The notes under the pieces were generated by a model. That model saw only the letters and a program-made list of their open reading frames with translations, had not been told where the DNA came from and ran no database searches. Shown here in pieces: positions 1 through 27,100 of a DNA stretch of 64,000 nt. Origin of the DNA: an uncultured candidate division WWE3 bacterium (GTDB taxonomy: Bacteria; Patescibacteriota; WWE3; UBA101185; UBA10185); contig CALKWN010000065.1 of NCBI GenBank assembly GCA_938004185.1, positions 90,371-154,370 on the forward strand, written 5' to 3'. The position numbers and the translations under genes are program-made. Positions within the stretch are counted from its first letter, which is position 1, and each line of letters begins with the position of its first letter.

Positions 1-12
1 AAGATTATAGAC

Positions 13-255
13 ATGGGAAAAAAAGAAGTACTTCTCCGCTCTATCGATACTAGGGAAGAAAAAACTTACATTTTCGATTGTTCTCCCGATAGGGTTTTTT
101 CTTACAAAAATCTTAATTTTGAGTTTGTTTCTTCAGGTTTTATGTTTATCGAAGCGTTGAAGCCGGGTAATACTGTAATAACAAAATGTGCTAATGAGGA
201 ATGTAGCGTGTTAGGCCCGGACTGTATTATCAGAATTGAGTATAAGGGAAGATAG
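13..255 (+). CDS. hypothetical small protein (80 aa)
   Basis: ORF from the six-frame track. It ends 2 nt before the next gene. No recognisable motifs. Confidence 0.3.
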   Translation: MGKKEVLLRSIDTREEKTYIFDCSPDRVFSYKNLNFEFVSSGFMFIEALKPGNTVITKCANEECSVLGPDCIIRIEYKGR

Positions 256-257
256 TT

Positions 258-2432
258 ATGGAAAGTCGATCTACACATACCGTAGTTTTAAGAAAATTTT
301 TATTGAATCTTTTTATTTTTGCTTTTGTCTATTTTTTTGCAGGATTTTTTGGTAAGGACACCATTGCAGCAACGTGTGCACCAGGTGAGTGTGGGGATTG
401 GTGGGCATGCCAGGGAGGGACATTTTGTTGTAATCAGGTCCCGGGTGTGGAGGCTTGTCCCAGTTATTACTGTGAGCACTATTTAAACGCTTGTTGGTAT
501 TTACTACCAAGTGGCGATGGGGTCTGTAAGACTAAAGTTGCAGGTGTGTGTCCCGGAGCGTCATCCGGAAGTTCTCTCGATGTTGGCGGGCGGGAATGTT
601 ACGCATGTGCAGGTATTCCGCCGTGTACCGAAACTTCACCCGATGCAACAACGCTAACATCACCTGCCAATAACTCTGTTTTTTACGACAGGTCTAACAT
701 CACATTTACGTGGAGTGCTATAAGCGATTGGGGGGAGAATTGTGGTTCCAATAACACGAAAAACTACAAACTGTACGTTAAAAGGAATTCCGGGAGCTTT
801 GTTTTGATTACTACAACAACAGGCACGTCTTATACTTACACGCTTCCTATAGAAAACGCTACTTATCAATGGTACGTAAAAACCGACAACGGGGCAAAAA
901 GTTCGGACTCAAGCACGTTTACATTTACAAACTACATGTTTATGAATTTGACTTTACGGGTGCAGGAAGTTTCCTGGTTAACGAATTCCTGCCCCTCCGC
1001 GGATATTTACAGGCCCCTTGCCAATGTATCAGTAACTGTAGTTGTGAGAAGAAGCACGGGTGAGGTAATTAACCATACTGGAAAAACCGACGCAAACGGC
1101 ATTTTGGTTATTCCGGTCAGATACTCTACGACAAGTCCTCCGGTCCTAGATATATGTTTGCAGTACTCCGAAGCTATGTGCCAAGTTTATAATTTGAAAT
1201 GTCGGGATAATGTTTTGCTGGCAGGCGGGCAAAATTGTGCAAGCGTAACGCAGCTGGCAAACACTACTACTCAAAATGTTAATTTTCAGATGTCAAAAGT
1301 GAAGAAGGATTCATGGATCGCTGTTGTTGATAGCGATGGGCTCGCTTCAGAATATTCCAGTTTGGGTCCGTGTACTGCCGAGCAGGTTTTAGGAGGTTTT
1401 TACGGGGCAATGCTGAACATCAATAAACTTCCTGCAAACAGTAACATTTACGCAATATCTTTGCTGGATCAGTTTTTTCCGACGGATGTAGTTGAGGGCT
1501 CGGGCGGCGGATACGCAAAAAATATAGGTGAGTTGGAAACAGTTCAGGAAGATTTGAAGTTCGAAGCTCCGGAAACTGCCAAAACGTTAAACACAATTAG
1601 CGGTTTTATTAAGCCCGGAATATATAGCATGACTGCGGCCGCTTTTAATAGTAGCCCGAATGATTATTTCTTTACCCCGATGGGTTGTGTATACGGACCT
1701 GCCGCGCATACGTGCTCACCGGATGATTCTTATTGTTTCGATCCGTCCAATCCACCGACTTACTGCCGTCCGTGGTGCGAGACTATGGTTGTTTTCAAAT
1801 GTGACCCTACGGATATTTGTTACAGCAAAGATGCCCCGGGAGGTTGTGATCCGTATTGTGTTAATTGGCCTGCGTGCGGATCTATGTCTCTTGCGTACAC
1901 AGGGGATAACGCACCCAGAGCAGCGGTAGTATATGTTGAAGGCACTCCTGCAGACGAACTTGTAATTGATGATTCTATAAGGGCTCTCGATATTCCCGAC
2001 GCATCGACAGCTCCCGGAAATCTTATCTTCATCACACGCGCAAAAATAAGAATAGCATCCAATCTGTCAGCTCCGTTGGCAGGATACGGTATAGGTAGTC
2101 CTTCTCAAATCAATGCTGTCTTAATTTCTTCTACAGGTATAACGGTTGATTCCCAATATACTCCGGCAACTCCCGACAATCCCATAATTTTTGACGGAGC
2201 TCTTATCAGTACTAAAGCCGGATCAGCAACAGACAAAGGTTTGGAACTTCTTCGCGATCTCGGAATAAATAACAACACTTACCCCGCCACGGTAGTTAGA
2301 TACCCGTTAAACCTGCTAAAACAAATAAACGGGCTTATCAAGCTGTATTCCGAGTACGGAATAGACACAGGTTTGGAAAATTATGATATCGAATTTGATT
2401 ACTCCCCTTCCGGAGAGATAGGTGTTCAATAA
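258..2432 (+). CDS. Large secreted Cys-rich protein with an FN3-like domain. Candidate pilus-associated adhesin.
   Basis: 724 aa. N-terminal hydrophobic signal/anchor (FLLNLFIFAFVYFFAGFF). Two Cys-dense regions (CAPGECGDWWACQGGTFCC..., CSPDDSYCFDPSNPPTYCRPWCETMVVFKCDPTDICY...). An FN3-like segment (ITFTWSAIS...YKLYVKRNSG...YQWYVKT). First gene of the pilus locus. Confidence 0.55.
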   Translation: MESRSTHTVVLRKFLLNLFIFAFVYFFAGFFGKDTIAATCAPGECGDWWACQGGTFCCNQVPGVEACPSYYCEHYLNACWYLLPSGDGVCKTKVAGVCPGASSGSSLDVGGRECYACAGIPPCTETSPDATTLTSPANNSVFYDRSNITFTWSAISDWGENCGSNNTKNYKLYVKRNSGSFVLITTTTGTSYTYTLPIENATYQWYVKTDNGAKSSDSSTFTFTNYMFMNLTLRVQEVSWLTNSCPSADIYRPLANVSVTVVVRRSTGEVINHTGKTDANGILVIPVRYSTTSPPVLDICLQYSEAMCQVYNLKCRDNVLLAGGQNCASVTQLANTTTQNVNFQMSKVKKDSWIAVVDSDGLASEYSSLGPCTAEQVLGGFYGAMLNINKLPANSNIYAISLLDQFFPTDVVEGSGGGYAKNIGELETVQEDLKFEAPETAKTLNTISGFIKPGIYSMTAAAFNSSPNDYFFTPMGCVYGPAAHTCSPDDSYCFDPSNPPTYCRPWCETMVVFKCDPTDICYSKDAPGGCDPYCVNWPACGSMSLAYTGDNAPRAAVVYVEGTPADELVIDDSIRALDIPDASTAPGNLIFITRAKIRIASNLSAPLAGYGIGSPSQINAVLISSTGITVDSQYTPATPDNPIIFDGALISTKAGSATDKGLELLRDLGINNNTYPATVVRYPLNLLKQINGLIKLYSEYGIDTGLENYDIEFDYSPSGEIGVQ

Positions 2433-2434
2433 TT

Positions 2435-3316
2435 ATGTCAGGACAGTTTAAAAATATTTTAAAAAATAAAGGTCAGGCGCTACTATTTGTGTTAGTTGCC
2501 CTAACCATAGCAATAACACTGGGAGTTGCTGTAAGCACCAGAACTTTGCAAATGTCCTCAAGAGTTTCAAGAACCGATACATCGGCGCGTGTTTTTGCCG
2601 CAGCTGAGGGGGGATTAGAAATGCTATTGGTGCAAAAATCAAAGTTTTTAAACGACCTGTCTGCCGGAAATGCGGATTGTACTTCGGTCGGTCTCGAGGC
2701 CATTGCAGGAGACAACACTAGGTGCTTATTAAGGTACGAAAAAGCTTCGGGGGATAAAATCGAATCGGTTGCCGTATTAAGTGCAAAAGTATTCAGACAC
2801 ACCGATATTTTGGGCGGAACACCTTACTACGGTTTTACCTTAGCTCCAAACGAAACCAAAAATATTGAACTAACAGGCATGAATTCTATAAGGTTGTGCT
2901 GGGAAAATCCTGACACGGCTGTAGAGTACGTAGTTTACGGAGACACCGTAGTTAGAAATTTTTTGAAGGCCGCCGGATCTGTATCTTTCAGTTCCGATAT
3001 TTCTTCAACGGGTTTTACCGAGCTAAGTTCCCACGCAATAATTGAAGGATATCCCCTACCCTACTGTTCCAACATAAATGTATCGGGAGCATCCGGCATG
3101 AGAGTAAAAAGCATATTTAAGGGTACGAGAGCTGCGATAGTTCCTTTAAATCCGACATCACTGCCTCCCCAGGGTTTCCGTTTATATTCCAGAGGAGAAT
3201 TAAGCCAGGAGGGGGATATTAAGACAACCAAAGCTATAGTTGCTCACAGATCGTACAACAGCGCCCCGTCCTTTTTTGATTATGCAATCTACTCTTACAA
3301 CACCGTACCCAGATAA
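2435..3316 (+). CDS. PilX N-terminal domain-like pilus assembly/minor pilin protein
   Basis: N-terminus GQALLFVLVALTIAITLGVAVSTRTLQMSSRVSRTDTSARVFAAAEGGLE resembles the PilX_N hydrophobic helix plus AEaGle motif. C-terminal motif IAPSFFDYAIYSY is shared with the paralog at 6576..7415. Confidence 0.5.
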   Translation: MSGQFKNILKNKGQALLFVLVALTIAITLGVAVSTRTLQMSSRVSRTDTSARVFAAAEGGLEMLLVQKSKFLNDLSAGNADCTSVGLEAIAGDNTRCLLRYEKASGDKIESVAVLSAKVFRHTDILGGTPYYGFTLAPNETKNIELTGMNSIRLCWENPDTAVEYVVYGDTVVRNFLKAAGSVSFSSDISSTGFTELSSHAIIEGYPLPYCSNINVSGASGMRVKSIFKGTRAAIVPLNPTSLPPQGFRLYSRGELSQEGDIKTTKAIVAHRSYNSAPSFFDYAIYSYNTVPR

Positions 3317-3462: not shown

Positions 3463-3882
3463 ATGAACGAATTAAAGAAGAAACTTAGCTCTGCTTCCGG
3501 TTTTACACTCATCGAGCTTTTGTTGGTTATTGTTATCATCGGTATTTTGTCGGGTATTGTTATCGCAGTTATTAACCCGGCTCAGACCAGACTTAGAGCT
3601 AACGAGACCATATTGAAAGGTAATACCGATAAGGTTTGCTATGCCATGTTTTCATGTGCTACATCGAGAACCGCTCCTCTTACAATGTGTAATACACCAG
3701 CAGGTGTCGAAATTGCATTACCCAACGGTGCTCCGACAGGATCAACCTACAATGTTACTGAGGCGGCTGGCGTTTTAACCGGTACTGGAACATTGGGCGC
3801 ATGTACTTATACATGTACTTACACAGTTTCCACGGGTGTAGCGGTCCAGGCTACAGCGGGCGCAGGTTGTCAGACTCTATAA
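3463..3882 (+). CDS. type IV (major) pilin with class III prepilin signal
   Basis: N-terminus MNELKKKLSSASG|FTLIELLLVIVIIGILSGIVIAVINP: prepilin peptidase site with G-1, F+1, E+5. Cys-rich C-terminus (GACTYTCTYT...AGCQTL). Strong RBS, own promoter, and a terminator downstream. Confidence 0.85.
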   Translation: MNELKKKLSSASGFTLIELLLVIVIIGILSGIVIAVINPAQTRLRANETILKGNTDKVCYAMFSCATSRTAPLTMCNTPAGVEIALPNGAPTGSTYNVTEAAGVLTGTGTLGACTYTCTYTVSTGVAVQATAGAGCQTL

Positions 3883-3895
3883 TTTTTTGATTGTT

Positions 3896-3930
3896 AAAGC
3901 CCCGCGCGCTATGGGCGGGGCTTTGGGTTT
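3896..3930 (+). terminator. intrinsic terminator/attenuator after the major pilin gene
   Basis: GC stem GCCCCGC (3899-3905) pairs with GCGGGGC (3915-3921). It is followed by TTTGGGTTT. Confidence 0.5.
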
Positions 3931-3938
3931 ACGAGCAA

Positions 3939-4463
3939 ATGTCCAAATTCACTAAACGTTTAAATTTCAAGGAACTGGGTTCAGGATTCACTCTGATAGA
4001 GCTGATGATAGCTATGGGGGTAATATCCATTTTAAGTGGGATAATTATTACTGTCATAAACCCCGCAGCATTACGAGCTCGTGGCAGGGATGCACAAAGA
4101 GTTGCGGATCTTAAGAAACTACAAACCGCTCTTGAGCTTTATTATTCAGATAACAGAGCTTATCCCGTGCAAGCCACGTTGGCACCTATAGCTACTCCTC
4201 TTGCAGTGTTAATTCCAAATTACTATAGCGGGACAACATCATCGGATCTTCCTAGAGATCCTAGTTTCACTGGGGGTTATAGCTGTTCCGGGAGTTTTGG
4301 GTACCAATACGCAGGAAGTGTCGGGCTTTATGTGTTAGTGTCTGACATGGAAACTTCTGTTAGTGTTTCTGATTATACTCCATGCAGCAATGTTTCGAAC
4401 TGTAGTACTTTTGGTTGCAGCACATGCGCAAATTTTTGCCATGCCGTACAAAACCCACTTTAA
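3939..4463 (+). CDS. prepilin-type pilin/pseudopilin
   Basis: MSKFTKRLNFKELGSG|FTLIELMIAMGVISILSGIIITVINP. The start was moved to the ATG at 3939; the track's upstream start at 3891 overlaps the terminator hairpin. Confidence 0.7.
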   Translation: MSKFTKRLNFKELGSGFTLIELMIAMGVISILSGIIITVINPAALRARGRDAQRVADLKKLQTALELYYSDNRAYPVQATLAPIATPLAVLIPNYYSGTTSSDLPRDPSFTGGYSCSGSFGYQYAGSVGLYVLVSDMETSVSVSDYTPCSNVSNCSTFGCSTCANFCHAVQNPL

Positions 4464-4950
4464 AAACTGTTTGTTTCTATCCTCTGGTTTAACTCTAATT
4501 GAGTTAGTAATTGTTGTAGCTTTAATATCAATAATGACCGGAATAAGCTATTCATTAATTTCTTCCTCGGTTACTAAACCAGAGGCACGTGACAATAGGA
4601 GAATGTCTGATATTTCGAATTTAGATAGAGCAATAAATGAGTATAGATTGGATAGAGGAGCGTATCCTGGCGAGGCCGGCGTAATATATGGTAGTAATAC
4701 CCTTCCTGTAGGATCTACGGCCATTTACAATGCAAATATGGGCTGGATAAAAGCCGATTTAGCGGAATATTTGGCGAAGAGCCCAATCGATCCCACAAAC
4801 GATGTATCCTATCATTATGAATACACACACAATGTTTCCGGTTATGAGATAAGTTCACGTTTGGAAAGTCTTTTCGATGACTCAAACTCTGACGGTGGAA
4901 ATAATTCGGAAAAGTATGAGTTAGGTAATAATCTTTCGCTCATACCTTAG
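4441..4950 (+). CDS. prepilin-like minor pilin
   Basis: MPYKTHFKNCLFLSSG|LTLIELVIVVALISIMTG. The internal Met was chosen as start; the track ORF began at 4363. Confidence 0.55.
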   Translation: MPYKTHFKNCLFLSSGLTLIELVIVVALISIMTGISYSLISSSVTKPEARDNRRMSDISNLDRAINEYRLDRGAYPGEAGVIYGSNTLPVGSTAIYNANMGWIKADLAEYLAKSPIDPTNDVSYHYEYTHNVSGYEISSRLESLFDDSNSDGGNNSEKYELGNNLSLIP

Positions 4951-4971
4951 TTGTTGTGCTACTATTTATGT

Positions 4972-5535
4972 ATGAAACTGCCCTGTTCCGTCTGTGCATA
5001 TAAAAAAGGTTTCACTTTGATAGAGTTGTTGTTGGTTATTGCAATTATCGCTACTGTTTCAGGTTTAGCAATTCCTACTTTCTCAAGATACACAAAAGAT
5101 CAAAGTTTAAAACAAGCTCAAGAAGTTTTGAAAAGCGAGTTGAGAAGTGTACAAAATAAGGCTTTAGTAGGAACGGGATCAGATAGTATGGATGCTTCGG
5201 GATCAAGAGCAATTGTAGCTTGGGGGGTATATACAAATCACGGTAGTGACGTGAGTGTGGTTGCGAATACAAAGTACAGGGTTTTTATGAGTTCTTATAC
5301 ATCTACAGGAAGCACGGGATGCACCGATGTTACTAGGCAAGCAGATATTCAAGTACTTGATTTGCCTCCAAATATAACCTTCACTAATACATCCTGCATA
5401 ATTTTCAGAATGGAAGACGGTAATGTTTCAAATATTTCTGAATCTTCTTCTATCGATGTAAATCTGGCCGGTCCGGGAGGCTCCACGAAGACGGTGAGGA
5501 TAACACACCCCGGTCTTATAAGGAGTTATAACTAG
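4972..5535 (+). CDS. prepilin-type pilin
   Basis: MKLPCSVCAYKKG|FTLIELLLVIAIIATVSGLAIP. The start was moved to the Met at 4972. Confidence 0.65.
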   Translation: MKLPCSVCAYKKGFTLIELLLVIAIIATVSGLAIPTFSRYTKDQSLKQAQEVLKSELRSVQNKALVGTGSDSMDASGSRAIVAWGVYTNHGSDVSVVANTKYRVFMSSYTSTGSTGCTDVTRQADIQVLDLPPNITFTNTSCIIFRMEDGNVSNISESSSIDVNLAGPGGSTKTVRITHPGLIRSYN

Positions 5536-6002
5536 TGCTCTTAAGTAAAATTTTTAAAAACAGAAAAGGTATGGGTTTGGTAGAAGTCATTGCGGCGCTC
5601 GGTATATCCGTAGTAGTAATAACTTCCCTGCTTTCTCTTACACTGTTTTCACTTAGAACTTCACTTACCAGCTCGCTGCTTATGGAAGGAACAAAAGCTG
5701 CGAATGTCGAAACCGAATTGATAAGGGCTTACAGGGACAGTATTGATTGGGACACTTTTTCGGGGGAGTTTTTATCTTGTACTGACAGCAGTGTGGGGTG
5801 TCATATAGATAAGACATCTTTAAAAGTTACTACGGGATACGAAAGCTTTGTATCGTCAGGAGTCACTGTAACTACAGGATTTTACGTTACCGACAGTGAC
5901 ACTAATATAATTCATGTTACTGTAAAGTCGAGTTGGGATATCGGCGGACAGACAAAAAACACTTATGTATACACCGATTTTACTAATTGGCAGAAAAAAT
6001 GA
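5535..6002 (+). CDS. prepilin-like minor pilin (PilV/PilW-like)
   Basis: GTG start. KNRKG|MGLVEVIAALGISVVVITSLL has G-1 and E+5 followed by a hydrophobic helix. Confidence 0.5.
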   Translation: MLLSKIFKNRKGMGLVEVIAALGISVVVITSLLSLTLFSLRTSLTSSLLMEGTKAANVETELIRAYRDSIDWDTFSGEFLSCTDSSVGCHIDKTSLKVTTGYESFVSSGVTVTTGFYVTDSDTNIIHVTVKSSWDIGGQTKNTYVYTDFTNWQKK

Positions 6003-6574
6003 ACCTAACAAGTATAAAATCAAAAAATAATAAAGGTTTCACTTTGGTGGAACTACTTGTGGTTGTTGCGCTACTTGGTATCTCGCTGGGCGTCACGAGC
6101 GATATCTTAATATCCCTGGTTCGAAGTTACGGAAAAACTCAAGTAAAAAATGAGCTCGAGCAGCAGGCCAGTTTTATCGGATTAAAATTGGAGAAAGAGA
6201 TAAGAAACGCAAATTATGTGGATTCTTACCCCGCCAATACTTTATCGGTAAACAGAATAGAGATAACTAAAAAAGACGGTACTGTAGTAATGTATAGAGT
6301 ACAGGACAATGTTTTATCTGTTTGTTATTCCAGCTGCGGTACGGGAACAAACTGGCGAGCAGTAAACTTTTACGAAACAACCAACACCAAAGGTGCCGTA
6401 AGAGTAGAATGCATTCCCGGTGAGAATAGTGGTTATTGCTTCGGTGTTTCTCAAACAAATCCGCAGGTAATATCGATGTATATAAACATTAGCCCCGCAG
6501 TTAACCCCGGTTCCACAACCTACAGCGGTAGCATACCCATAAGAAACGCCATAACCGTAAGAAACTACAACTAA
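5987..6574 (+). CDS. prepilin-type pilin
   Basis: SKNNKG|FTLVELLVVVALLGISLGV. Confidence 0.65.
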   Translation: MAEKMNLTSIKSKNNKGFTLVELLVVVALLGISLGVTSDILISLVRSYGKTQVKNELEQQASFIGLKLEKEIRNANYVDSYPANTLSVNRIEITKKDGTVVMYRVQDNVLSVCYSSCGTGTNWRAVNFYETTNTKGAVRVECIPGENSGYCFGVSQTNPQVISMYINISPAVNPGSTTYSGSIPIRNAITVRNYN

Positions 6575-6575
6575 A

Positions 6576-7415
6576 ATGAGAAGCATAAGTACTCAAAAAA
6601 ATCGCAACTGCCTGAAAAATAATAGCGGTCAAACGCTGGTAGTGATCGTATTTTTACTTCTATTTTCAACCATGGTCGGTATAACCATTTCAACAAGATT
6701 TGTAAACACACTAAGAGGTTTTGTCAGGACGGACGACAGCGTAAAAGCCTTAAAAGCTGCTGAAGCAATAATAGAACGTATGCTCATAACACCGAATTCA
6801 GTGCTGGAAGGTTACATAGCGGCCGGAAACTGCGACGGAAACTGCCTTTACAGTGTTACGGAGCCTAACGGCAACATTGTCAGTGCTGATGTAACCTTAA
6901 AATATTCGGGAGACACCGACGGCCCGTATACCATTTATATTCAACCCGGTGAGGCAGGCCAGGTAAATATGACCGGGTACGGCACAGGAAAAGTCGTGGA
7001 TATTTGCTGGCACGGTTCTGCTTCGGTTTATGCTGCCTATGCATACGAAGAAAGTGGTGAGACAAAAATCGCTTCTTATGCGGTAAACTCCGTAGCCTCT
7101 CCCTATAACGACAACGGTTTTGATACAGCTGCGGCAAACTATGGTTACCCCAACTGTTTCCCCGTATCTACAACCGGCACGCCCAAATACATAAGACTAA
7201 GAACTTATTACGAGTCCGCTTATGTCACTTCCCTACCCACTCCGGGAGAAACTATTCCGAGACAGGGAATTATACTGGACGCACACGGATATTCCGGGGA
7301 TTCGGTTAAAAACGTGGTTGTCCTTAAAACAGATGCTATTGCCCCAAGTTTTTTTGATTACGCAATTCTGCAAACGAGTACAACTTCCCCGCTAACCAAT
7401 AGTTATAGCCCATAA
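6576..7415 (+). CDS. PilX N-terminal domain-like protein (paralog of 2435..3316)
   Basis: NNSGQTLVVIVFLLLFSTMVGITISTRF...AAEAIIE. C-terminal IAPSFFDYAILQT motif shared with 2435..3316. Confidence 0.5.
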   Translation: MRSISTQKNRNCLKNNSGQTLVVIVFLLLFSTMVGITISTRFVNTLRGFVRTDDSVKALKAAEAIIERMLITPNSVLEGYIAAGNCDGNCLYSVTEPNGNIVSADVTLKYSGDTDGPYTIYIQPGEAGQVNMTGYGTGKVVDICWHGSASVYAAYAYEESGETKIASYAVNSVASPYNDNGFDTAAANYGYPNCFPVSTTGTPKYIRLRTYYESAYVTSLPTPGETIPRQGIILDAHGYSGDSVKNVVVLKTDAIAPSFFDYAILQTSTTSPLTNSYSP

Positions 7416-7465: not shown

Positions 7466-8497
7466 ATGCCCATTGTAGGTTTAAATTTCGGTAGAAGTAC
7501 TTTCCGAGCCGTAGAATTGGATAAGAGAAAAGATATCATTACGGTTGCGAATATAGGTACTTACGAAAACCCCAAAGTTAACTTTTTTTCCGATAAAAAA
7601 GAGGACATGGATGTTATTGCCGACCATGTGGGCGAATTTTTTAAAGAAATGGGTTTCGGAACCTCCCATGTAGTAATAGGCTTGGATGAAAGCCAGATTT
7701 TTATGCGTATAATCAAGGTTCCCGCCATGAGCGACAAAGAATTAAGAAGCGCCGTAAGATACGAGGCTGAGCAGTATATTCCCCTTCCCTTAGATCAGAT
7801 AAACCTTTCATATCAAAGATTAGACCCGGACTTAAACGAAAAAGACAAAGTTAATGTTCAGGTTGTTGCCGCCAAAAAAGATGTTCTTGAAAGGTATGTG
7901 ACGATAGCGAAAAAGGCAAAACTCGTACCCTATGCCATTGAGCCCGAAACTATTGCGCTGGGAAGAGTGTTGGGAGATTCCAAGACAGCTCCTCTAGGCA
8001 CAATAATCATGGATATGGGTTTTTCAGGATCGATCCTAGTTGTTACTTACGGCGGATTTGTAAGATTTACAAGAAGCATACCGATCGGAGGAGACATTAT
8101 TACCAAAGCTATTCAGCAGGAGCTTAATCTTGATGTACAGCAGGCGGAAGAATACAAAAAGATCTACGGTATGGATCCAATGCAGGTTGAATCAAAAATA
8201 TTCAACGTAATTAAGCCTGTGGTAGATAACCTTATTTTGGAAATTAAACGTGCAACTGTCTTCTTCACAAAGCACAACAGCTCTGCTAGCATTAAGAGGT
8301 TAATACTAACAGGAGGAACTGCCCTAATGCCTGAACTCTTAACTTATATTGCTAAAAACGTTGATTTTGAAGTGCAGCTGGCCAACCCCTTGGCAAACTT
8401 CCAGTTTTCCTCCAAAATTGAGTCAAAGAGAAAGGATCTTACACTAGACGGGCCTATGTATTCTACGGCCGTCGGTTTGGCCTTGAGGGAAATATAA
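7466..8497 (+). CDS. pilM: type IV pilus assembly ATPase-fold protein PilM
   Basis: 343 aa. N-terminus IVGLNFGRSTFRAVEL and an actin-like fold arrangement. Located directly upstream of pilN/pilO-like genes. Confidence 0.8.
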   Translation: MPIVGLNFGRSTFRAVELDKRKDIITVANIGTYENPKVNFFSDKKEDMDVIADHVGEFFKEMGFGTSHVVIGLDESQIFMRIIKVPAMSDKELRSAVRYEAEQYIPLPLDQINLSYQRLDPDLNEKDKVNVQVVAAKKDVLERYVTIAKKAKLVPYAIEPETIALGRVLGDSKTAPLGTIIMDMGFSGSILVVTYGGFVRFTRSIPIGGDIITKAIQQELNLDVQQAEEYKKIYGMDPMQVESKIFNVIKPVVDNLILEIKRATVFFTKHNSSASIKRLILTGGTALMPELLTYIAKNVDFEVQLANPLANFQFSSKIESKRKDLTLDGPMYSTAVGLALREI

Positions 8498-9073
8498 ATG
8501 GAAAATATTAATCTAATTCCGCAGGAAGAGGTTCAGCTTCAACAGAAGGGCAAAGCTGTTAAAGGTACCAGCGTTCTTTTTATACTCCTTACCGTGATTG
8601 CGATAGGTTTGTCAGGCTACCTGTATTACAAAACATCCGATCTTAAACAAAAAACCAACGATGTTAATTCCCAAATAGATGCACAGAGAGCGAAAATTAA
8701 GTCCATGTCCTCTACCGAAATTCTTCTCAGAAACCTCGATAAAAAATATAACTCTATATCAGGCATGATTGATGGGAGAAACCATTATTCTAGACTGTTA
8801 TCAGAACTCAAAGTAAGACAGCCGCAGGGAATTTCAATTGAATCGGTTGAAGTAAAGGACGGAGTTGTTAATTACACGGGCGACGCCGAAAACTATTTAT
8901 TGATCGCTCAATTTGTAAACAGTTTGTTAAACAAGGATTTTCCTGGCGGCGACCCTGAACTTAAAGATCTTTTTTCAGAAGTTAAACTTAACTCCGTATC
9001 TTTAGATCAAAATAAAACAGAGGTAAGGTTTTTTATAGTGATAGTTTACGATTCATCGAAGTTAAAAATATGA
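8498..9073 (+). CDS. pilN: type IV pilus assembly protein PilN
   Basis: N-terminal INLIP motif, then a single TM helix (VLFILLTVIAIGLSGYLYY), then a coiled-coil region. Start abuts the pilM stop. Confidence 0.7.
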   Translation: MENINLIPQEEVQLQQKGKAVKGTSVLFILLTVIAIGLSGYLYYKTSDLKQKTNDVNSQIDAQRAKIKSMSSTEILLRNLDKKYNSISGMIDGRNHYSRLLSELKVRQPQGISIESVEVKDGVVNYTGDAENYLLIAQFVNSLLNKDFPGGDPELKDLFSEVKLNSVSLDQNKTEVRFFIVIVYDSSKLKI

Positions 9074-9996
9074 ACGAAGAAAGTATAGAAAATAAAATTA
9101 AAGAACTTAATGTAGGCGCTTTTAAAGATGTGCTTTTCGATTTTCTTTTTCCATTAATCGGGTTGGCTATCACCGTTTTGTTGTTTTTCTTTTACATGAA
9201 ACCGACATACACAAAAATGAAAGAACTTGAAACTGAGCTTTCCACTCAAACAACGGTATTGGAGATTTTAAATACAAAAGTCGCCGCCCTGTCCAAGCTC
9301 ACTGATTTTAATGATGTTTTGAAAGAAAATTCCGAAATGGTTGAAAAGCTTTATGTTTCGGAATCTAATGTTCCTCAGCTTTTAGATCAGATACACCAAA
9401 TATCTACAAATGCCGGAATGATGGTGGATAGAATGAATTACTCTTACTCCGACGCCGGAGCCAAAGATGCCGCGGCTCAAGGTAAATCGGCTGATGCGAC
9501 GGCAGAACTTAGAACAGACGATACAAGCGGAATCGTAAATGTAGCGGCTACCGTTATAGGTACTTACGAGCAACTTCAGGTTTTCATGCAGGAAATTGAG
9601 AAGGCGGCCCGTTTTACTTACGTAACAACATTCAGATTCGGGGCTTCGACTGAAGAAGGTAAAGAAGGACAGTTCAGCGTAAACGTAAATGTCGATTCTC
9701 CTTACATGTATGTTCAATCGGTTGCTGTCACGGACGATCCGATAAAACTTGATATTCAAAATCCTAAATTTGTTGAATTTATAAACAGCATAAAAGAATA
9801 TAAATATTACGATTTCCTAAATCAGCAAATTGTTGCGGAAGAAGTTGAGAGCATTGAAGAGCCTGAAGAGGAAACATTGTTCCCCGCCGCCGGTACTTTA
9901 GAAGAAATTCCCGTTGAACAGCCTGTTGTCGAAGAACAGCCTGTTGCAGAAGGAACTGAAGAACCTGCAGAAGAAGAAACACCGTTCGGATTTTAA
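9070..9996 (+). CDS. PilO-like pilus assembly protein with acidic Glu/Pro-rich C-terminal tail
   Basis: Single TM (FPLIGLAITVLLFFFYM), coiled coil, then the tail EEVESIEEPEEETLFP...EQPVVEEQPVAEGTEEPAEEE. Overlaps pilN by 4 nt. Confidence 0.45.
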   Translation: MNEESIENKIKELNVGAFKDVLFDFLFPLIGLAITVLLFFFYMKPTYTKMKELETELSTQTTVLEILNTKVAALSKLTDFNDVLKENSEMVEKLYVSESNVPQLLDQIHQISTNAGMMVDRMNYSYSDAGAKDAAAQGKSADATAELRTDDTSGIVNVAATVIGTYEQLQVFMQEIEKAARFTYVTTFRFGASTEEGKEGQFSVNVNVDSPYMYVQSVAVTDDPIKLDIQNPKFVEFINSIKEYKYYDFLNQQIVAEEVESIEEPEEETLFPAAGTLEEIPVEQPVVEEQPVAEGTEEPAEEETPFGF

Positions 9997-18400: not shown

Positions 18401-21127
18401 GTGCGGGAGTGGTATAATTTTGTAATGCCGGTTGTAAACTCAAGAAAGTACAAAAGGTATCGTTCAAAAAAGGGCCTTTTAAATAAAATTAAAAAATATT
18501 TTGATTTTTCACACGTCTCCGATGTTTATGAGAAGGCCAAACCGACTAACATGTCTTTAGCCGGTTTGGGCGAAAAAAAGCTTAAAAGACTGACAATTCT
18601 TTCATCTGCCGTGCTTTTTTTAATGGTTGTCGGTTTATTCGGCACCATAATAGTATTTGCCTATTTTTCCAGAGAACTTCCCGACCCTACCAGACTTCTT
18701 GAAAGAAGCTTTGAACTTTCCACAAGGTTTTACGACCGAAACGACAAGTTGATTTACGAGGTTTTCGGTGACAAAAACAGGACTTTAGTAAAACTCGAGG
18801 AAGTTAATCCTTACGTTACTTACGCTACTCTTTCAGTTGAGGATTCGGAGTTTTATCTTCACAAAGGTTACTCGATAAGAGGTATGGCAAGGGCTTTAAG
18901 AAACACCTTTACCGGTGAAGGCCTTCAGGGAGGCTCTACATTAACCCAGCAGGTTATAAAGAACACACTTTTAACCCAGGATAGAACTATCGTCCGTAAA
19001 ATCAAGGAAATGATACTTTCTTTGCAGTTAGAGAATAAGTACAGCAAAGATGAAATTATCCAGATGTATTTAAATGAAACTCCTTACGGAGGTCAGAATT
19101 ACGGTATATACAGCGCCTCAAAGGCGTATTTCAATAAACTTCCTAAAGACTTAACTGTGGCTGAATCGGCTTATTTGGCCGGATTACCTCAAAGACCGAG
19201 TTACTACTCACAGTTCGGCGCCAATCCCGAGGCGGGCCTTGAAAGAAAAGACTATGTTTTGTACTTAATGCATGAGCGCGGGTGGGTTGCCGGAGACAGC
19301 AAACGCCACTACTTAAGCACCGAAGATTACGAGGCGGCAAAAAGCGAGGAATTAAGGTTTGAAACCGCCCGTGTTCCGCTTGAAGCGCCACACTTTGTAT
19401 TTTATGCAAAGTCATACCTTGTAGATTTACTGGGCGAGGATGCCGTTGAAAAAGGCGGATTAAAAGTAAAAACCTCAATAGACTTGGATGTGCAGAAACT
19501 TGCCCAGGATACAGTAACAAACGAATTAGATAAATCAGCAAATTTAAATGTTTGGAATGGCGCGATGGTGGTACTAGATCCCAAAACAGGCCAGATTCTA
19601 GCTATGGTGGGTTCAAAAGGATACAACCTTGATCCCCAGCCTGAAGGATGTGTTTCCGGAACTTCGGGAGAAAATTCGTGCAAATTCGACCCTTACGTTA
19701 ATGTCGCTCTTTCACTAAGACAACCCGGCTCCGCAATAAAACCCGTAACTTACGCTTCCATGCTCCAGCAGGGTTACTCAGCCGCGTATCCCTTTTTGGA
19801 TATGCCTATCGCCTTTGAGGGTTCAGCTCCCGACAAGCCTTACGAGCCGGAAAACTACGACGGAATATTCAGAGGTGTTGTTTCTATGAGGCGTTCGCTG
19901 GCTAACTCATTAAATATTCCGGCGGTAGAGGCGTTAAAAATAGGTGGAATCGACAACATGATTGATCTGGCCGAAAAAATGGGTATTTCCACATTTACGG
20001 ACCGCGACAGATACGGTTTGGCTTTAACACTTGGTGGCGGAGAAACAAGGCTCCTGGAACTGACAGGCGCTTTCTCGGTTTTCGCGGCTGAAGGAATGTA
20101 CAACAAACCCACTCCTATAATAGAAGTGTTGGATTCCAACGGTAAGGTTGTTTATAAAGCACAGCATCAAAGTACTCGAGCTCTCGACGAAGGAACCGCG
20201 TTTTTAATTTCAGATATACTTTCCGACAACGGAGCCCGTTCAGATGTATTTGGGTCTAACAGCCTTTTAAACATTCCCGGCCACACAGTAGCGGCCAAAA
20301 CCGGAACGACCGATGATAAAAGAGATAACTACGCAATGGGATACACTCCTTTTGTTGTCGTGGGTGTGTGGGTCGGTAACAGCAATAACGAAAAAATGAA
20401 TCCTTACATTGCTTCAGGTATTTCGGGGGCGTCTCCTATTTGGAATACCTTCATGAAAGAATACCTTAAGAACAAAGAAGATCAAAAATTCAACATTCCT
20501 TCAAACGTTGAAAAATTCGAGGTTGATAGGCTGACAGGCGGCTTACCTTATGATGATTTTGAAAAAAGAAGTGAATGGTTTGTAAAGGGCACCGAGCCCA
20601 CCGCCAGAAGCGACTGGTTTCAGAGGCTCGAAATATGCGAAATCGACGGCCGCATCGCCAACGAAGGATGTAAGGATGCGGGCAAAACCGACGAGGAAAG
20701 TTTTGTACGCATAACCGCTCCTTACAGCGAATGGCAACCTGCGGTAGATGCGTGGGTAAAAGAAAAATATAAAGATGACGACAAATTCTTCCCTCCCCTT
20801 ATGGTGTCAAAACTGGAATTTGACGGAGACAGTGTTTCAAATAAAGACGATGTTAATGTCGAAATAGTTGGGGTTAAAGACGGTCAAAGCGTTCCGCTTA
20901 AGTTTAGATTAAACGTTGAAATTTCAGCATACAACGATATAAAGGTTGTAAGAATTTACATGGACGACAACAAGATTGCCGAGGACGACAGCAGTCCTTA
21001 TGGTTACAACTTCGAGCTCTCGGCATCGGATATCGGAAGTCACGAATTTAAGGCAACAGTTACGGACGAGGACGGAAACAAGGGTGAGGCAAAAATCAGG
21101 CTCAATGTTATCGGTTACGCAAGATAA
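18401..21127 (+). CDS. class A penicillin-binding protein (bifunctional glycosyltransferase/transpeptidase) with a C-terminal extension
   Basis: GT51 motifs SVEDSEFYLHKG and GGSTLTQQ. Transpeptidase motifs SAIK (SxxK), SLN (SxN) and KTGTT. N-terminal TM. The true start may be an internal Met. Confidence 0.85.
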   Translation: MREWYNFVMPVVNSRKYKRYRSKKGLLNKIKKYFDFSHVSDVYEKAKPTNMSLAGLGEKKLKRLTILSSAVLFLMVVGLFGTIIVFAYFSRELPDPTRLLERSFELSTRFYDRNDKLIYEVFGDKNRTLVKLEEVNPYVTYATLSVEDSEFYLHKGYSIRGMARALRNTFTGEGLQGGSTLTQQVIKNTLLTQDRTIVRKIKEMILSLQLENKYSKDEIIQMYLNETPYGGQNYGIYSASKAYFNKLPKDLTVAESAYLAGLPQRPSYYSQFGANPEAGLERKDYVLYLMHERGWVAGDSKRHYLSTEDYEAAKSEELRFETARVPLEAPHFVFYAKSYLVDLLGEDAVEKGGLKVKTSIDLDVQKLAQDTVTNELDKSANLNVWNGAMVVLDPKTGQILAMVGSKGYNLDPQPEGCVSGTSGENSCKFDPYVNVALSLRQPGSAIKPVTYASMLQQGYSAAYPFLDMPIAFEGSAPDKPYEPENYDGIFRGVVSMRRSLANSLNIPAVEALKIGGIDNMIDLAEKMGISTFTDRDRYGLALTLGGGETRLLELTGAFSVFAAEGMYNKPTPIIEVLDSNGKVVYKAQHQSTRALDEGTAFLISDILSDNGARSDVFGSNSLLNIPGHTVAAKTGTTDDKRDNYAMGYTPFVVVGVWVGNSNNEKMNPYIASGISGASPIWNTFMKEYLKNKEDQKFNIPSNVEKFEVDRLTGGLPYDDFEKRSEWFVKGTEPTARSDWFQRLEICEIDGRIANEGCKDAGKTDEESFVRITAPYSEWQPAVDAWVKEKYKDDDKFFPPLMVSKLEFDGDSVSNKDDVNVEIVGVKDGQSVPLKFRLNVEISAYNDIKVVRIYMDDNKIAEDDSSPYGYNFELSASDIGSHEFKATVTDEDGNKGEAKIRLNVIGYAR

Positions 21128-21170
21128 CAAAAGGCAATTCCCTTGACACATCCGCCCCTTACTGCAATAT

Positions 21171-22217
21171 TTGGTTAGGGATATGAAAAACGATTTAAAC
21201 TCAATTAAACAACAGGCGCAGGAAGAATTGGCGTCTTCCTCTACCTCGCAGGATGCGTCGGAATGGTACTCAAAGTATCTGGGCAAAAAGGGAATTTTAA
21301 GAAATCTAACTTCCGACGTGAAAGGTCTTTCAGAAGAAGAAAAGCGGACTTTAGGCCGTGGTGTCAATGAACTCAAACTGTTTCTTCAAGAAATTTACTC
21401 AAACAGGCAAGAAACCCCCTCAGTACAAGAAAAAGACGAGAAATTAGCGGATTTTTACAAAACTCTGCCGGGCAAAAAACCCGACATCGGGCATCTGCAT
21501 TTAATCACCCAGGCCATACGTGAGATAAATGCCGTTTTTGCAAAATTGGGTTTTGTGCGTGTGCGTTACCCCGAAGTCGAGTGGGACTACTACGCTTTTG
21601 AGGCATTAAACATGCCCGCCACCCACCCCGCCCGTGACGAGTGGGAAACTTTCTTTGTCGACCTTCCAGAAGACAAAAAGATGGGAAAAGTTGTTATTAC
21701 TCCCCATACATCGAGCGGCCAGGTTCGCGAAATGCTCAAAGGCGACCTACCAATTAGAATGATAAACATTTCAAGATGCGGACGCAGACAAATCGACATA
21801 AACCACGTGCCGACCTTTTACCAGTTCGAAGGCCTTTTAATAGACAAAAACATTAGCATCACCCATCTAAAGGGCGTTCTCGAATATTTCATTCATAATT
21901 TTTTTGGTAAGGACACCAAGTTCCGTCTGCGTCCCTATGACTTTAGGTTTACAGAGCCCAGCTTTGAGGTAGACGTAACCTGCAGTATCTGTGGAGGGAA
22001 AGGCTGCCGTTTCTGCAAAGAAGGATGGGTTGAGCTTGGCGGCGCCGGAATGGTTCACCCGAACGTACTAAAAGCAGGAGGTATCGATCCTGAAGAATAT
22101 TCTGGATTCGCTTTTGGCTGGGGAGTTGAAAGAGTTTTGATGATGAGATCAGGATTAAAAATCGACGACATCCGCCACCTGTTGGAAAATAACTTAAAAT
22201 TTTTGGAGCAATTTTAA
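21171..22217 (+). CDS. pheS: phenylalanine--tRNA ligase alpha subunit
   Basis: FEALNMPATHPARDEWETFF and class II aaRS motifs. Confidence 0.9.
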   Translation: MVRDMKNDLNSIKQQAQEELASSSTSQDASEWYSKYLGKKGILRNLTSDVKGLSEEEKRTLGRGVNELKLFLQEIYSNRQETPSVQEKDEKLADFYKTLPGKKPDIGHLHLITQAIREINAVFAKLGFVRVRYPEVEWDYYAFEALNMPATHPARDEWETFFVDLPEDKKMGKVVITPHTSSGQVREMLKGDLPIRMINISRCGRRQIDINHVPTFYQFEGLLIDKNISITHLKGVLEYFIHNFFGKDTKFRLRPYDFRFTEPSFEVDVTCSICGGKGCRFCKEGWVELGGAGMVHPNVLKAGGIDPEEYSGFAFGWGVERVLMMRSGLKIDDIRHLLENNLKFLEQF

Positions 22218-24192: not shown

Positions 24193-27100
24193 TTAATCCC
24201 CGAACCTTATTGCCCCACCCTCGTTGTACAAAACTCTTATCAGATGATCGGTTAAAGGTGCGTTATGTATGGTAACTTCATCAATCTGGCCGTCAAAATA
24301 TCCTGAACCTGCAGAATCTCGGCCGATGTTTAGTGCGGTAGAACTTAGAACAGTAACGGAATCTGTTTCCTCTTGGGTGTCTTCTAAAGTTCCATTTACG
24401 TAAATTTTAATATTTGCTCCGTCGTACGTGCACATTATGTGTGTCCAACTGCTTGCAGTCAGAGAACTTGTAGCTACAGCTGGGGTTTGATAAGTGCCGC
24501 TGGAATATATCTCACATTGCGGATTACCCGACGCATTTGTTGTAAGCTTAAATTCACCAGGTTTATGAATCAGCGTATCAGAGGCTGGAGAGGAATCAGG
24601 ATTAAACCAAGCACCGTAAGAAATGTTGCTGTAGCTAATCCCGTTTGCATGGAACAAGGGTGAGGTGGAACCTACTAGATAGTCATCAACACCGTCAAAA
24701 TCCAGACTTCCGTTAAACTTACCTTCTTTACCTCCGTACCACATCTCCCCAGACGATCCCTCGCAAGTGCCGACAGTAGTATTTCCCGATGACTGTGGGT
24801 AGATTGTTAAATCAATACCAACGGAGGTATCGTCAGAAGATCTACCAGAGTTGTGGGCCGTGCTTCCCGAACACTCATTAAATTTATAGTAGTACTTAGG
24901 TGCAATTCTGTTATATTCCCAAGCTATTTGTGCTTGAGTTCTGGTGTAGTCATAAAGTTTTACATTATCCATGGTTCCGTAAAAATAGCTGGATGCTGCG
25001 GGGGCGTTGGAACCAAAATATAACGGCATATTAGAATTTAGAATTACTCCAGAAGCACCGGTTGCGGGTGCGTGGGACAGTTCCTTATTTAAGTAAGCGT
25101 ATAGAACTGTACCATCTCTAACTAGAGCAAAGTGATACCACTTGTCTGTTGTAATTGAGAGCGTGTTGATAGTTGTATTTGACGACGCCCTCGAAGACGC
25201 GACCCACCTACATTCTATTATGTCGGTGGTAGTTATATAGCATAGATAGCTACTATAAGGATCTGTATTGTCAGATTTTACAAAGAGGTAGTATGTATTA
25301 CCCGCATCCGAAGGTAGTTGGTCAAGTTTAAACCACATCGATACGGTAATACCGTTTACAGGTGTAAGAAGATCGTTATCAGGAACGTTGGTATAGTCGT
25401 TTGTTCCGTCAAAAGCTAACCCACCACCGTTTTTCCCTGTATCCCATGTAGGATCGTTTGTGGCTGGAGAAGATGTATCTCCTAACATACCGAACAAATT
25501 GTTAGCACCGCTATCGTAAAACAATTGCCCTGACATCTCGTCCATTCTCCACTCTGCTACCGGTGGGCTACACGCAGCCGTATCCCCTGGAACACAATAC
25601 ATTCGGTCATACGAATTGCTGGGTGTTACCCCATCACTTTCAGTAGACAAAGCACCCCACTGCGATGTCTTGCCCTGATTCAACAAAACATTCGCCTCGC
25701 CCTGATTAATTTCATAATTAAAAATCGTAACCTCATCAATTGAACCCACAAACTTTCCTGTGTAGTCGTCTCCCCGGCCCCCGATAACAAGGGTGTTGTC
25801 TCCGTCGATACTGCCTGTTGCCGTAAGGTTTGTATTTGAATCGTTAAGTACGCCATCAATGTAAAGGTCAATTTGACTTGTCCCTATTTTTACAGCTGTT
25901 ACACTATGCCACTGGCCGTCGTACACGTCATCATCGCTGGAAACTGTGTCATCAGGTGACCATGTCGAGTCATCGTCAATTCCAAAGATTATGTTTCCTC
26001 CGGAGTTGAAATACAGCGCATACCCTGCGGTTGAGTTTCCACCACGACCAAGTACATACTCGGTACTTGAGGGGTTTGAGGAGGAGTCGGACTTAAACCA
26101 CATGTTTATGGCAAAGCTTTCGTCGTCAAAGACAAAGGCATTGTCATCTACATATGCGTAGTTTGTTCCCCCGTCATAAAATGCTTTATTAAATTTACCT
26201 GAAGTGGTAAATGCTGTGGCAGATGGAGGTGAGGCAACAAGTGTCAGGTTTCGGGAGTTTCCTGTTCGGTCGTAAATTGTTGTGCCTCCGTTTTCGTCGA
26301 ATCTATAGTGAGCGATTGGTGCACCAAGGGTTGAATCGGGTGCTGGGATTTGAGCGTCAAGATCTTTTGTCACTTGTTTTACATCAGGTGCGTATGAATA
26401 TATTTTGAAGTCGTCGAGGCGTCCCTCAAAGTTTTCGCCGGATCCGCCTTCCATTTGAGAGCCGTATGTTTTGCCGAGGAGAAGTGGTTTGTCTTCGGAG
26501 GCGAGTGAAAATGGAGTTGCGTTAGTAGTTGTATTTTCAAGGACACCGTTGACGTAGATTTTTAAATCGGAGCCGTCGAATGTTCCGGAGAGGTGATACC
26601 AGGTGTCTGCGGTCCAGGAGGAGGTGGTTGACGCAACACTAACATCAGATGTGTTCCCATATTTTGCAATTTGATTTACAGTCGTCCCCCCTGCTGTGGT
26701 AAAGGCTCCCCCCACATACAAATACCCGTTATACACACTCAAGGTACGGACCTGATTATTTGTCCCCACAGTAGCCCCTCCTATGGGGAGGCAGGTATCA
26801 GTTGAATCATCGTACTTTGCAATATTATTTACAGTTGTTCCTTCTGATGTGGTACCAGAAAAACCCACATACAAATACCCGTTATATGCTGCGAAAGCAT
26901 AGGTATCGGAGATATCTCCATCGTTTCCACCACATATGGCACTAATTGTATCCGTACTATCATTATATCTTGCAACTCTATTTCCATGGCTTGTAAAGCT
27001 TCCACCTAAATACAAATATCCGTTGTATTCTCCTAATGCGTAAATATAGCCACTTGTACCGGTTGCTCCCGCTATAGCACTGAAGGTATTAGTACTACCA

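Follow-up and report, generated by a model that had tools for sequence, protein, structure and literature searches.

The window, a 64,000-nucleotide stretch of DNA from a candidate division WWE3 bacterium, contains at 258..2432 on the + strand an open reading frame that starts with ATG and encodes a protein of 724 aa. The gene is embedded in a complete type IV pilus locus and is separated from each of its neighbours by 2 nt. The genes of this locus in the window are as follows.

1..255, + strand: C-terminal 84 codons of an upstream 182-aa gene, in a frame that is open from base 1 of the window
258..2432, + strand: gene of the 724-aa protein, which is predicted to be Sec-secreted, Cys-rich and multidomain, with a conserved C-terminal solenoid module
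2435..3316, + strand: PilX_N-like protein, 293 aa (PilX_N E=0.0069 over the whole 51-position profile)
3463-3882, 3939-4463, 4441-4950, 4972-5535, 5571-6002 and 5999-6574, + strand: six prepilin-type genes (N_methyl / IV_pilin_GFxxxE matches)
6576..7415, + strand: second PilX-like paralog, 279 aa (26% identity to the 2435-3316 product, E 3e-19)
7466-8497, + strand: PilM (Pfam PilM_2 match on the identical L003 gene)
8498-9073, + strand: PilN-like, from its position and PilN matches on the L024 and L026 counterparts (no Pfam match recorded here)
9070-9996, + strand: PilO-like (faint PilO match on the identical L003 gene)

The coordinates of the six prepilin-type genes (3463..6574) are gene calls transferred from L003, a longer contig with an identical 724-aa protein; at least 22 public contigs carry this identical protein. 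The full 182-aa gene is found at 9450-9998 of L003 and ends 2 nt before the ATG of the 724-aa gene. Upstream of the latter, L003 encodes PilB, PilT, PilC, a pilin, PilD, a histidine kinase (on the opposite strand), a response regulator, a 260-aa protein and the 182-aa protein, and downstream of it the PilX_N-like protein, six prepilin-type proteins, the second PilX-like protein, PilM, PilN and PilO. An earlier interpretation of the window made from its letters (the sequence-only reading) had the 724-aa gene heading the operon, but because the open frame just upstream, at a gap of 2 nt, is the 182-aa gene of the longer contigs, and further pilus genes precede it in L003, the gene is not the operon head. 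The close spacing to the next gene that it described is borne out, with 2 nt between the stop codon and the ATG at 2435. We propose that the product of this next gene is the cap minor pilin and the docking partner of the 724-aa protein; comparable sub-threshold PilX_N matches occur in three of the eight homologs of the PilX_N-like protein that were scanned.

Searches of the 724-aa protein against Pfam, NCBIfam and PDB sequences gave no match at threshold. The protein is divided as follows.

258..371, + strand: signal peptide, aa 1-38 (hydropathy profile; predicted cleavage)
372..626, + strand: N-terminal Cys-rich region, aa 39-123, with 13 Cys (Cys motif; AlphaFold pLDDT < 50)
627..935, + strand: FN3-like beta-sandwich, aa 124-226, with a conserved W-G-E-x-C motif
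936..1298, + strand: second beta-sandwich, aa 227-347, CnaB / transthyretin / CarboxypepD_reg-like
1299..2429, + strand: family-defining C-terminal module, aa 348-724, modelled with an ice-binding-protein-like beta-solenoid core and a flanking helix at aa 684-699
1686..1901, + strand: second Cys cluster, aa 477-548, with 10 Cys, a lineage-specific loop insertion in the solenoid module

The signal already noted in the sequence-only reading consists of a basic n-region and a hydrophobic core (aa 14-31), followed by an AxA-type candidate SPase I site between TIAA and TC. Nearly all full-length relatives likewise have a Sec-type signal ending in A-x-A, with a Cys immediately after it. The 724-aa protein has no prepilin leader, in that there is no G-1/E+5 and no N_methyl (TIGR02532) match, unlike in the six neighbouring genes, and being without a class III prepilin signal it can be ruled out as a type IV pilin or pseudopilin.

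Cysteine makes up 4.14% of the protein (30 Cys), whereas the window's other long ORFs average 0.83%. Thirteen Cys fall within aa 40-123 (84 aa; P = 3e-13) and ten within aa 477-540 (64 aa; P = 2e-10), based on a binomial background set by the Cys rate of the other window ORFs, and the enrichment of both clusters is far beyond chance. These are the two clusters of the sequence-only reading, although its counts (about 20 Cys in about 90 aa, and 8 in about 60 aa) have to be replaced by those given here. The 13 N-terminal Cys positions are largely kept among close homologs, and the motif C-x4-C-x5-C-x5-CC-x8-C-P-S-x2-C of this region is common to the query and to relatives P0003, P0006, P0016, P0017 and P0050. 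The isolated Cys-rich segments have no Pfam match even at E<=10, and a hevein/chitin-binding-like identity, which had been considered from the Cys spacing, was dropped on this result.

The FN3-like segment of the sequence-only reading is modelled by AlphaFold as a beta-sandwich (residues ~124-226, pLDDT 73-89) that matches FnIII-like modules in structure comparison, while at the sequence level the matches are sub-threshold (Big_7 E=0.0098 for the query; fn3 at 23 bits versus a cutoff of 25 for relatives). The second beta-sandwich, which like the C-terminal solenoid module is absent from the sequence-only reading, contains five Cys that are conserved among close homologs. In a full-length AlphaFold run with five sequences these two central domains were modelled confidently, and the Cys-rich parts and the module were left without a confident model.

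Quick searches brought up few relatives of the protein: a word-index search gave one weak match with the query and five with a 23-sequence module alignment, and the family was recovered only by an exhaustive HMMER search, with 85 matches. Four of these are collinear homologs with 38-44% identity, three full-length (P0003, P0005 and P0006) and one truncated at the N-terminus (P0004). Many of the 85 span only the FN3-like segment, some of them in giant proteins, and another set spans only the C-terminal third. When the latter set is aligned, a module of ~290 aa emerges, which in every case is located at the C-terminal end. It starts with W..V.DGD, followed by AV.YV.G, P.I.A.IIS, D.PI...G.L.S and RDLG..N..YPA..V.Y.P, and ends with TGL..FDVQW.Y in the main group and with W.EVAP in a more divergent subgroup. 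The query module begins with W353-x4-D358-x-D360 and contains the motifs AVVYVEG, IFIT, QINAVLIS, NPIIFDGALIS, RDLG-x2-N-x-YPA and TGL-x3-D. The sequence-only reading had characterized the protein by its Cys regions and FN3 segment, but the part that defines the family is this solenoid at the C-terminus. The second Cys cluster is a lineage-specific insertion in one of its loops, since relatives P0003 and P0006 and all distant members do not have it and P0004 and P0005 have it in part.

In the genome collection, full-length homologs all belong to candidate division WWE3; one source is the complete genome RAAC2_WWE3_1, whose gene order is the same as in the pilus locus of the window. A metagenome scan yielded three loci, of which two break off at the gene. 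Lineage labels of the module proteins are WWE3 and Saccharimonadales, and the named relatives of the subgroup found in loci L015-L020, like the named matches of the W.EVAP subgroup, are from Woesebacteria and Collierbacteria. Named relatives are all annotated as "hypothetical protein", except for one UniRef intein-domain label. The module proteins are a real, unannotated family, restricted to CPR lineages in the sampling done here.

A separate AlphaFold model of the module, based on 32 module sequences, has a pTM of 0.67, with pLDDT values of 85-96 for the core (residues ~430-475 and ~550-715). No usable model was obtained for the Cys insertion (pLDDT < 50) or for the initial ~85 residues of the module, where the invariant W and D.D are located. 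Structure prediction of the protein alone, one of the checks suggested in the sequence-only reading, thus gives the central sandwiches and the module core, and not the Cys-rich parts or the beginning of the module. By structure comparison the module has the solenoid fold of the tip pilin ComZ, with moderate similarity, an assignment that comes from one model of a shallow alignment. The module model had no significant match in Foldseek, where the best was an ice-binding protein (E 0.18), and PDB sequence searches with the protein and with alignments A4 and A6 gave nothing meaningful, so that there is no sequence-level link between ComZ and the module. The module is not considered a PilX paralog, since in profile comparison it showed no relation to the PilX-like protein encoded next to it.

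Among Pfam families, the nearest is DUF7305 (PF23981), which matches relative P0148 with 25.8 bits (E 1.1e-5) and P0051 with 15.7 bits (E 0.014), over only ~70 of the 185 profile positions; neither reaches the 27-bit gathering threshold, and the query and most relatives have no match. The alignment of P0148 with the module profile has a probability of 99%. Nothing is documented about the role of DUF7305 proteins in the searchable literature.

A beta-helix of this kind could also be an enzyme, a glycan lyase or hydrolase that makes way for the pilus through the wall or S-layer of the cell itself, or attacks the host envelope. The pointers to such an activity are a few invariant or nearly invariant residues (W, G and R; D and P) and weak lyase-type matches, and we consider it very improbable. 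Under an enzymatic reading, the invariant residues D358, D360 and R666 would serve in catalysis or bind Ca.

Eighteen module proteins have a genomic context that could be read, and 13 of them are encoded in type IV pilus loci; much of this synteny reflects one broadly syntenic locus type (with trmD, rpsP and RNase III flanks), and the 13 loci are not 13 independent events. The relatives in pilus loci are divergent, with 20-50% identity in the module. In nine cases (the window, L007, L008, L009, L010, L023, L024, L026/L028 and the P0010 locus) the module gene is directly upstream of a PilX_N-like gene, which is followed by pilins and PilMNO. In four others (L015, L017, L019 and L020) it is convergent with a pilin array; PilD was seen in L015 and L017, and PilC, PilT and PilB in L015. 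Two contigs (L021 and L022) are cut on the informative side, and three proteins are encoded away from pilus genes (P0050 in L025, P0090 in L027, and the half-module P0001 in L001). The homologs are mostly inside pilus loci, and by sequence the protein belongs to no non-pilus family; the sequence-only reading had named the opposite of these two findings as what would contradict it.

The 182-aa gene repeatedly accompanies the module gene. Its product is small, with an N-terminal membrane anchor and a C-terminal C-x2-(E/D)C-x5-C motif, and its homologs precede the module genes in L007-L009 and also in the non-pilus locus L027 (E 2.6e-5), where the homolog overlaps the start of the module gene by 4 nt. 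No similarity was found between the small proteins encoded upstream in L001 and those of the window. In L028 (Saccharimonadales), a cassette consisting of a small membrane protein, a module protein and a PilX-like protein occurs twice in tandem, with identities between the paralogs of 27%, 44-54% and 59%, respectively. The three genes have here duplicated and diverged as a unit.

These contexts also bear on a different explanation, in which the 724-aa protein is a secreted or surface adhesin or an envelope protein whose expression is regulated together with that of the pilus (e.g., via the histidine kinase and response regulator) but which is not in the filament, and either stays on the surface or is released. 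Full-module members away from pilus genes (those of L025 and L027) and the location of the module gene on the strand opposite the pilins in four loci are consistent with it, as are the ordinary Sec type of the signal peptide and the central domains, which are generic stalk domains of surface proteins. However, this explanation accounts for neither the repeated adjacency to PilX-like genes nor the co-duplication of the cassette and the ComZ-like fold, and no LPXTG, lipobox or C-terminal TM is visible in the 724-aa sequence. We regard it as unlikely, though not so unlikely as the enzymatic reading.

N-terminal to the module, relatives vary freely, with Cys-rich stretches, FN3-like domains, faint PKD-like domains, TSP1 repeats and CnaB-like sandwiches, and full-length family members range from about 490 aa to 1254 aa. 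The 724-aa protein is among the fastest-diverging products of the locus: it is 37-38% identical to its WWE3 orthologs, versus 60-88% between WWE3 genomes for PilB, T, C, D, M, N and O and the PilX-like proteins. The products of the two small genes upstream are equally divergent (26-39%). This variation argues against a structural component of the pilus machine that resides in the CPR envelope and is not borne on the filament, for example an exit conduit, or an anchor that would replace the secretin and alignment components. The constant position of the gene between the regulatory genes and the minor pilins would suit such a part, and a secretin gene was not seen in the CPR locus stretches that were read; however, both the low identity relative to the machine components and the free exchange of N-termini, with the accompanying range of lengths, speak against it, and the duplicated and diverged cassettes of L028 fit alternative tips better than a fixed conduit. 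A machine part is, in our estimation, about as improbable as an enzyme.

The closest parallels are found among pilus tip proteins. ComZ of Thermus thermophilus (PDB 6qvi) has an ice-binding-protein-like triangular beta-solenoid, which according to the model is also present in the module. The ComZ solenoid is itself closest to an ice-binding protein, and a structural argument has been made that ComZ must cap the pilus (PMC6561018); a 2026 preprint describes the same kind of solenoid in cyanobacterial PilX and proposes that it replaces PilY1 as tip plug. In ComZ and cyanobacterial PilX, the solenoid is inserted in a pilin fold with an N-terminal pilin helix, whereas here it is on a separate Sec-secreted non-pilin: the 724-aa protein has neither an N_methyl nor a PilX_N match that would indicate a pilin-type helix or pilin fold, and its solenoid is preceded by the FN3-like and CnaB-like domains. 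Its gene instead adjoins that of a short PilX_N-like protein. Other differences are the undetectable sequence similarity and the additional Cys-rich, FN3-like and CnaB-like domains of the 724-aa protein, in which nothing suggests DNA binding. The 724-aa protein would be a split, two-polypeptide counterpart of ComZ and cyanobacterial PilX. A literature search for a solenoid in Patescibacteria pili found nothing.

The 724-aa protein resembles PilY1/PilC of Proteobacteria and Myxococcus in being a large non-pilin with a signal peptide that is encoded with minor pilins, in combining a conserved C-terminal domain with a variable N-terminal part, and in its presumed role (tip plug, adhesin, assembly priming). 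The parallel is one of layout and not of fold. The protein has no PilY1-type beta-propeller (Pfam Neisseria_PilC), and membership in the PilY1/PilC family is thereby ruled out, in agreement with the sequence-only reading, which had seen no resemblance to PilY1; neither the Pfam scan nor structure comparison found any. Nevertheless, the conserved ~290-aa module behind hypervariable N-terminal regions makes a PilY1-like pattern of one docking end and one variable end, and the 724-aa protein would be a functional analogue of PilY1. With no propeller, no prepilin signal and only the fold in common with ComZ, it would act most like a ComZ/PilX solenoid made as a separate subunit, or like PilY1, while belonging to neither family.

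Two other groups of proteins can be compared. Ice-binding proteins (IBP-1/DUF3494; PDB 3wp9, 7bwx, 6bg8 and 5uyt) appear, from the model, to share with the module the beta-solenoid and the flanking alpha-helix, but neither the query nor the 32 module sequences have an Ice_binding/DUF3494 Pfam match at E<=1, and the query is found in a pilus locus, with no reason to expect ice binding. The tapirins of Caldicellulosiruptor (PDB 6n2c, 6n2b and 4wa0) are, like the module, beta-helix proteins; they are adhesins but not pilins, and the bacterium, which lacks an outer membrane, encodes them in its type IV pilus locus.

The reading that we favor, with a probability of roughly 0.55, is that the 724-aa protein, secreted by Sec and not itself a pilin, is an accessory protein of the WWE3 type IV pilus and serves as a pilus-associated adhesin or tip plug, with its solenoid docked on the PilX-like cap pilin. 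The docking is proposed because solenoid and cap pilin, which form a single polypeptide in ComZ and PilX, are here encoded by neighbouring genes (a Rosetta-stone argument), and the argument is strengthened by the synteny and by the co-duplication of the cassette. In the proposed sequence of events, the protein would be exported by Sec and its signal peptide would then be removed, and its many cysteines would form disulfides outside the cytoplasm. The C-terminal beta-solenoid would dock onto the PilX_N-like cap pilin, the product of the next gene, possibly with the help of the small membrane-anchored protein encoded upstream. As the minor-pilin complex primes assembly, the 724-aa protein would be carried to the tip of the pilus, where the solenoid would act as a "plug" and the variable, disulfide-rich head, projecting outward on an FN3/CnaB stalk, would bind a ligand or host.

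A bolder extension is that CPR bacteria have a modular three-gene "tip cassette" made up of the small membrane protein, the Sec-secreted solenoid protein and the PilX-like cap pilin, in which the head domains choose the host and duplicates provide alternative tips. We consider this extension tentative, and clearly less probable than the adhesin or plug reading itself. If it is true, swappable Cys-knot-like, FN3, PKD and TSP1 domains would set which host cell is gripped by the pilus of the epibiont, and duplicated cassettes such as those of L028 would give one machine alternative tips.

To our knowledge, every member of the CPR/Patescibacteria in culture lives attached to host cells, and this attachment requires type IV pili. 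As a host-recognizing molecule, only PilX2, from one Saccharibacterium, has been put forward (PMC11623550). If the adhesin or plug reading is true, the "solenoid plug", seen in Thermus and cyanobacteria as a fused part of cap pilins, can also be secreted as a subunit of its own, which would connect the pilus-tip solutions of the PilY1 and ComZ types. If the protein is instead a co-regulated surface protein, the module family is still an unannotated and widespread family of CPR surface proteins that is worth a Pfam entry. The role of the family as a pilus-borne adhesin or plug is credible but unproven. It is a concrete candidate for CPR host recognition that is conserved across phyla, and with the proposed combination of a constant pilus-docking end and a fast-changing outer end, host specificity becomes testable.

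In many loci the module gene is directly preceded on its 5' side by a gene for a small protein of about 160-260 aa with an N-terminal membrane anchor, as in the following examples.

Small membrane-anchored protein genes upstream of the module gene
Window 1-255 (+), adjoining the module gene
L003 9450-9998, in the locus that carries the identical protein
L027 9213-10004, in a module locus away from pilus genes
L017 1064-1549
L028 5106-5606 and 9463-10011, two copies in a Saccharimonadales-labelled locus

These small proteins frequently end at the C-terminus in a C-x2-(E/D)C-x5-7-C motif, and they are also found away from pilus loci (L027). In L028 the small protein gene and the module gene are duplicated together, as part of a tandem duplicate, in the pilus locus of a Candidatus Saccharimonadales-labelled genome, of a cassette comprising the small transmembrane protein, the module protein and a PilX-like protein (L028 5106-13810, and L026 1-5927). 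The module proteins of the two copies are 999 and 1059 aa long and the PilX-like proteins 282 and 288 aa, with the second PilX-like gene of L028 broken by a run of N. Possible roles for the small protein are those of a chaperone, an anchor or a third subunit.

In the window, two PilX_N-like paralogs (2435-3316 (+) and 6576-7415 (+); 26% identity, E 3e-19) flank six pilin genes, and have in common a conserved C-terminal motif, APSFFDYAI. PilX_N matches, all of them below threshold, were obtained for the window protein and three of the eight homologs scanned. The true starts of three of the pilin genes are uncertain, because the mechanical ORFs (3891-4463, 4363-4950 and 4951-5535), which overlap or start far 5' of the prepilin motif, disagree with the public gene calls, in which these genes begin at 3939, 4441 and 4972.

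In several family members, the solenoid module is preceded by thrombospondin type-1-like repeats (WSxWSxCSxxCGxGxxxRxC; P0029, P0043, P0111, P0113, L022 3-1760 and L023 1-1470), a domain type that is unusual in bacteria; for P0113 the Pfam TSP_1 score is over threshold. The FN3-like domain (window 627-935; signature W-x5-W-G-E-x-C) is repeated up to 20 times in giant metagenome proteins of 1600-2700 aa (P0008, P0009, P0012, P0027, P0030 and P0066, from the exhaustive HMMER search), and seems to represent an FN3 subtype of its own, belonging to large surface proteins. A divergent subgroup, whose named relatives are Woesebacteria and Collierbacteria, has a strictly conserved C-terminus, RR.(R/K)W.EVAP (P0023, P0048, P0051, P0081, P0083, P0086-P0088, and most matches of one further homolog search), which resembles a signal for sorting or processing; the window protein does not have this ending.

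A DsbB-family gene (L001 5255-5719) lies about 1.6 kb 5' of the remote half-module relative P0001. A giant window ORF (24193-32910 (-), 2905 aa) contains at least six Laminin_G_3 (ConA-like lectin) stretches, together with Kelch/beta-propeller, sialidase-N-like and Gly_rich_2 domains, in a region of raised G+C (0.465-0.479 vs about 0.41 elsewhere), and is probably another large surface protein. A 150-aa ORF with 8.7% Cys (20924-21376 (-)), antisense inside the penicillin-binding-protein gene (18401-21127), is most likely spurious.

In the pilus locus, a conserved pair made up of a histidine kinase, on the opposite strand, and a response regulator separates PilD from the block that holds the module gene (L003 6581-8420; also in L007, L024 and the P0010 locus). 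This conserved placement suggests dedicated regulation of the genes downstream of the pair.
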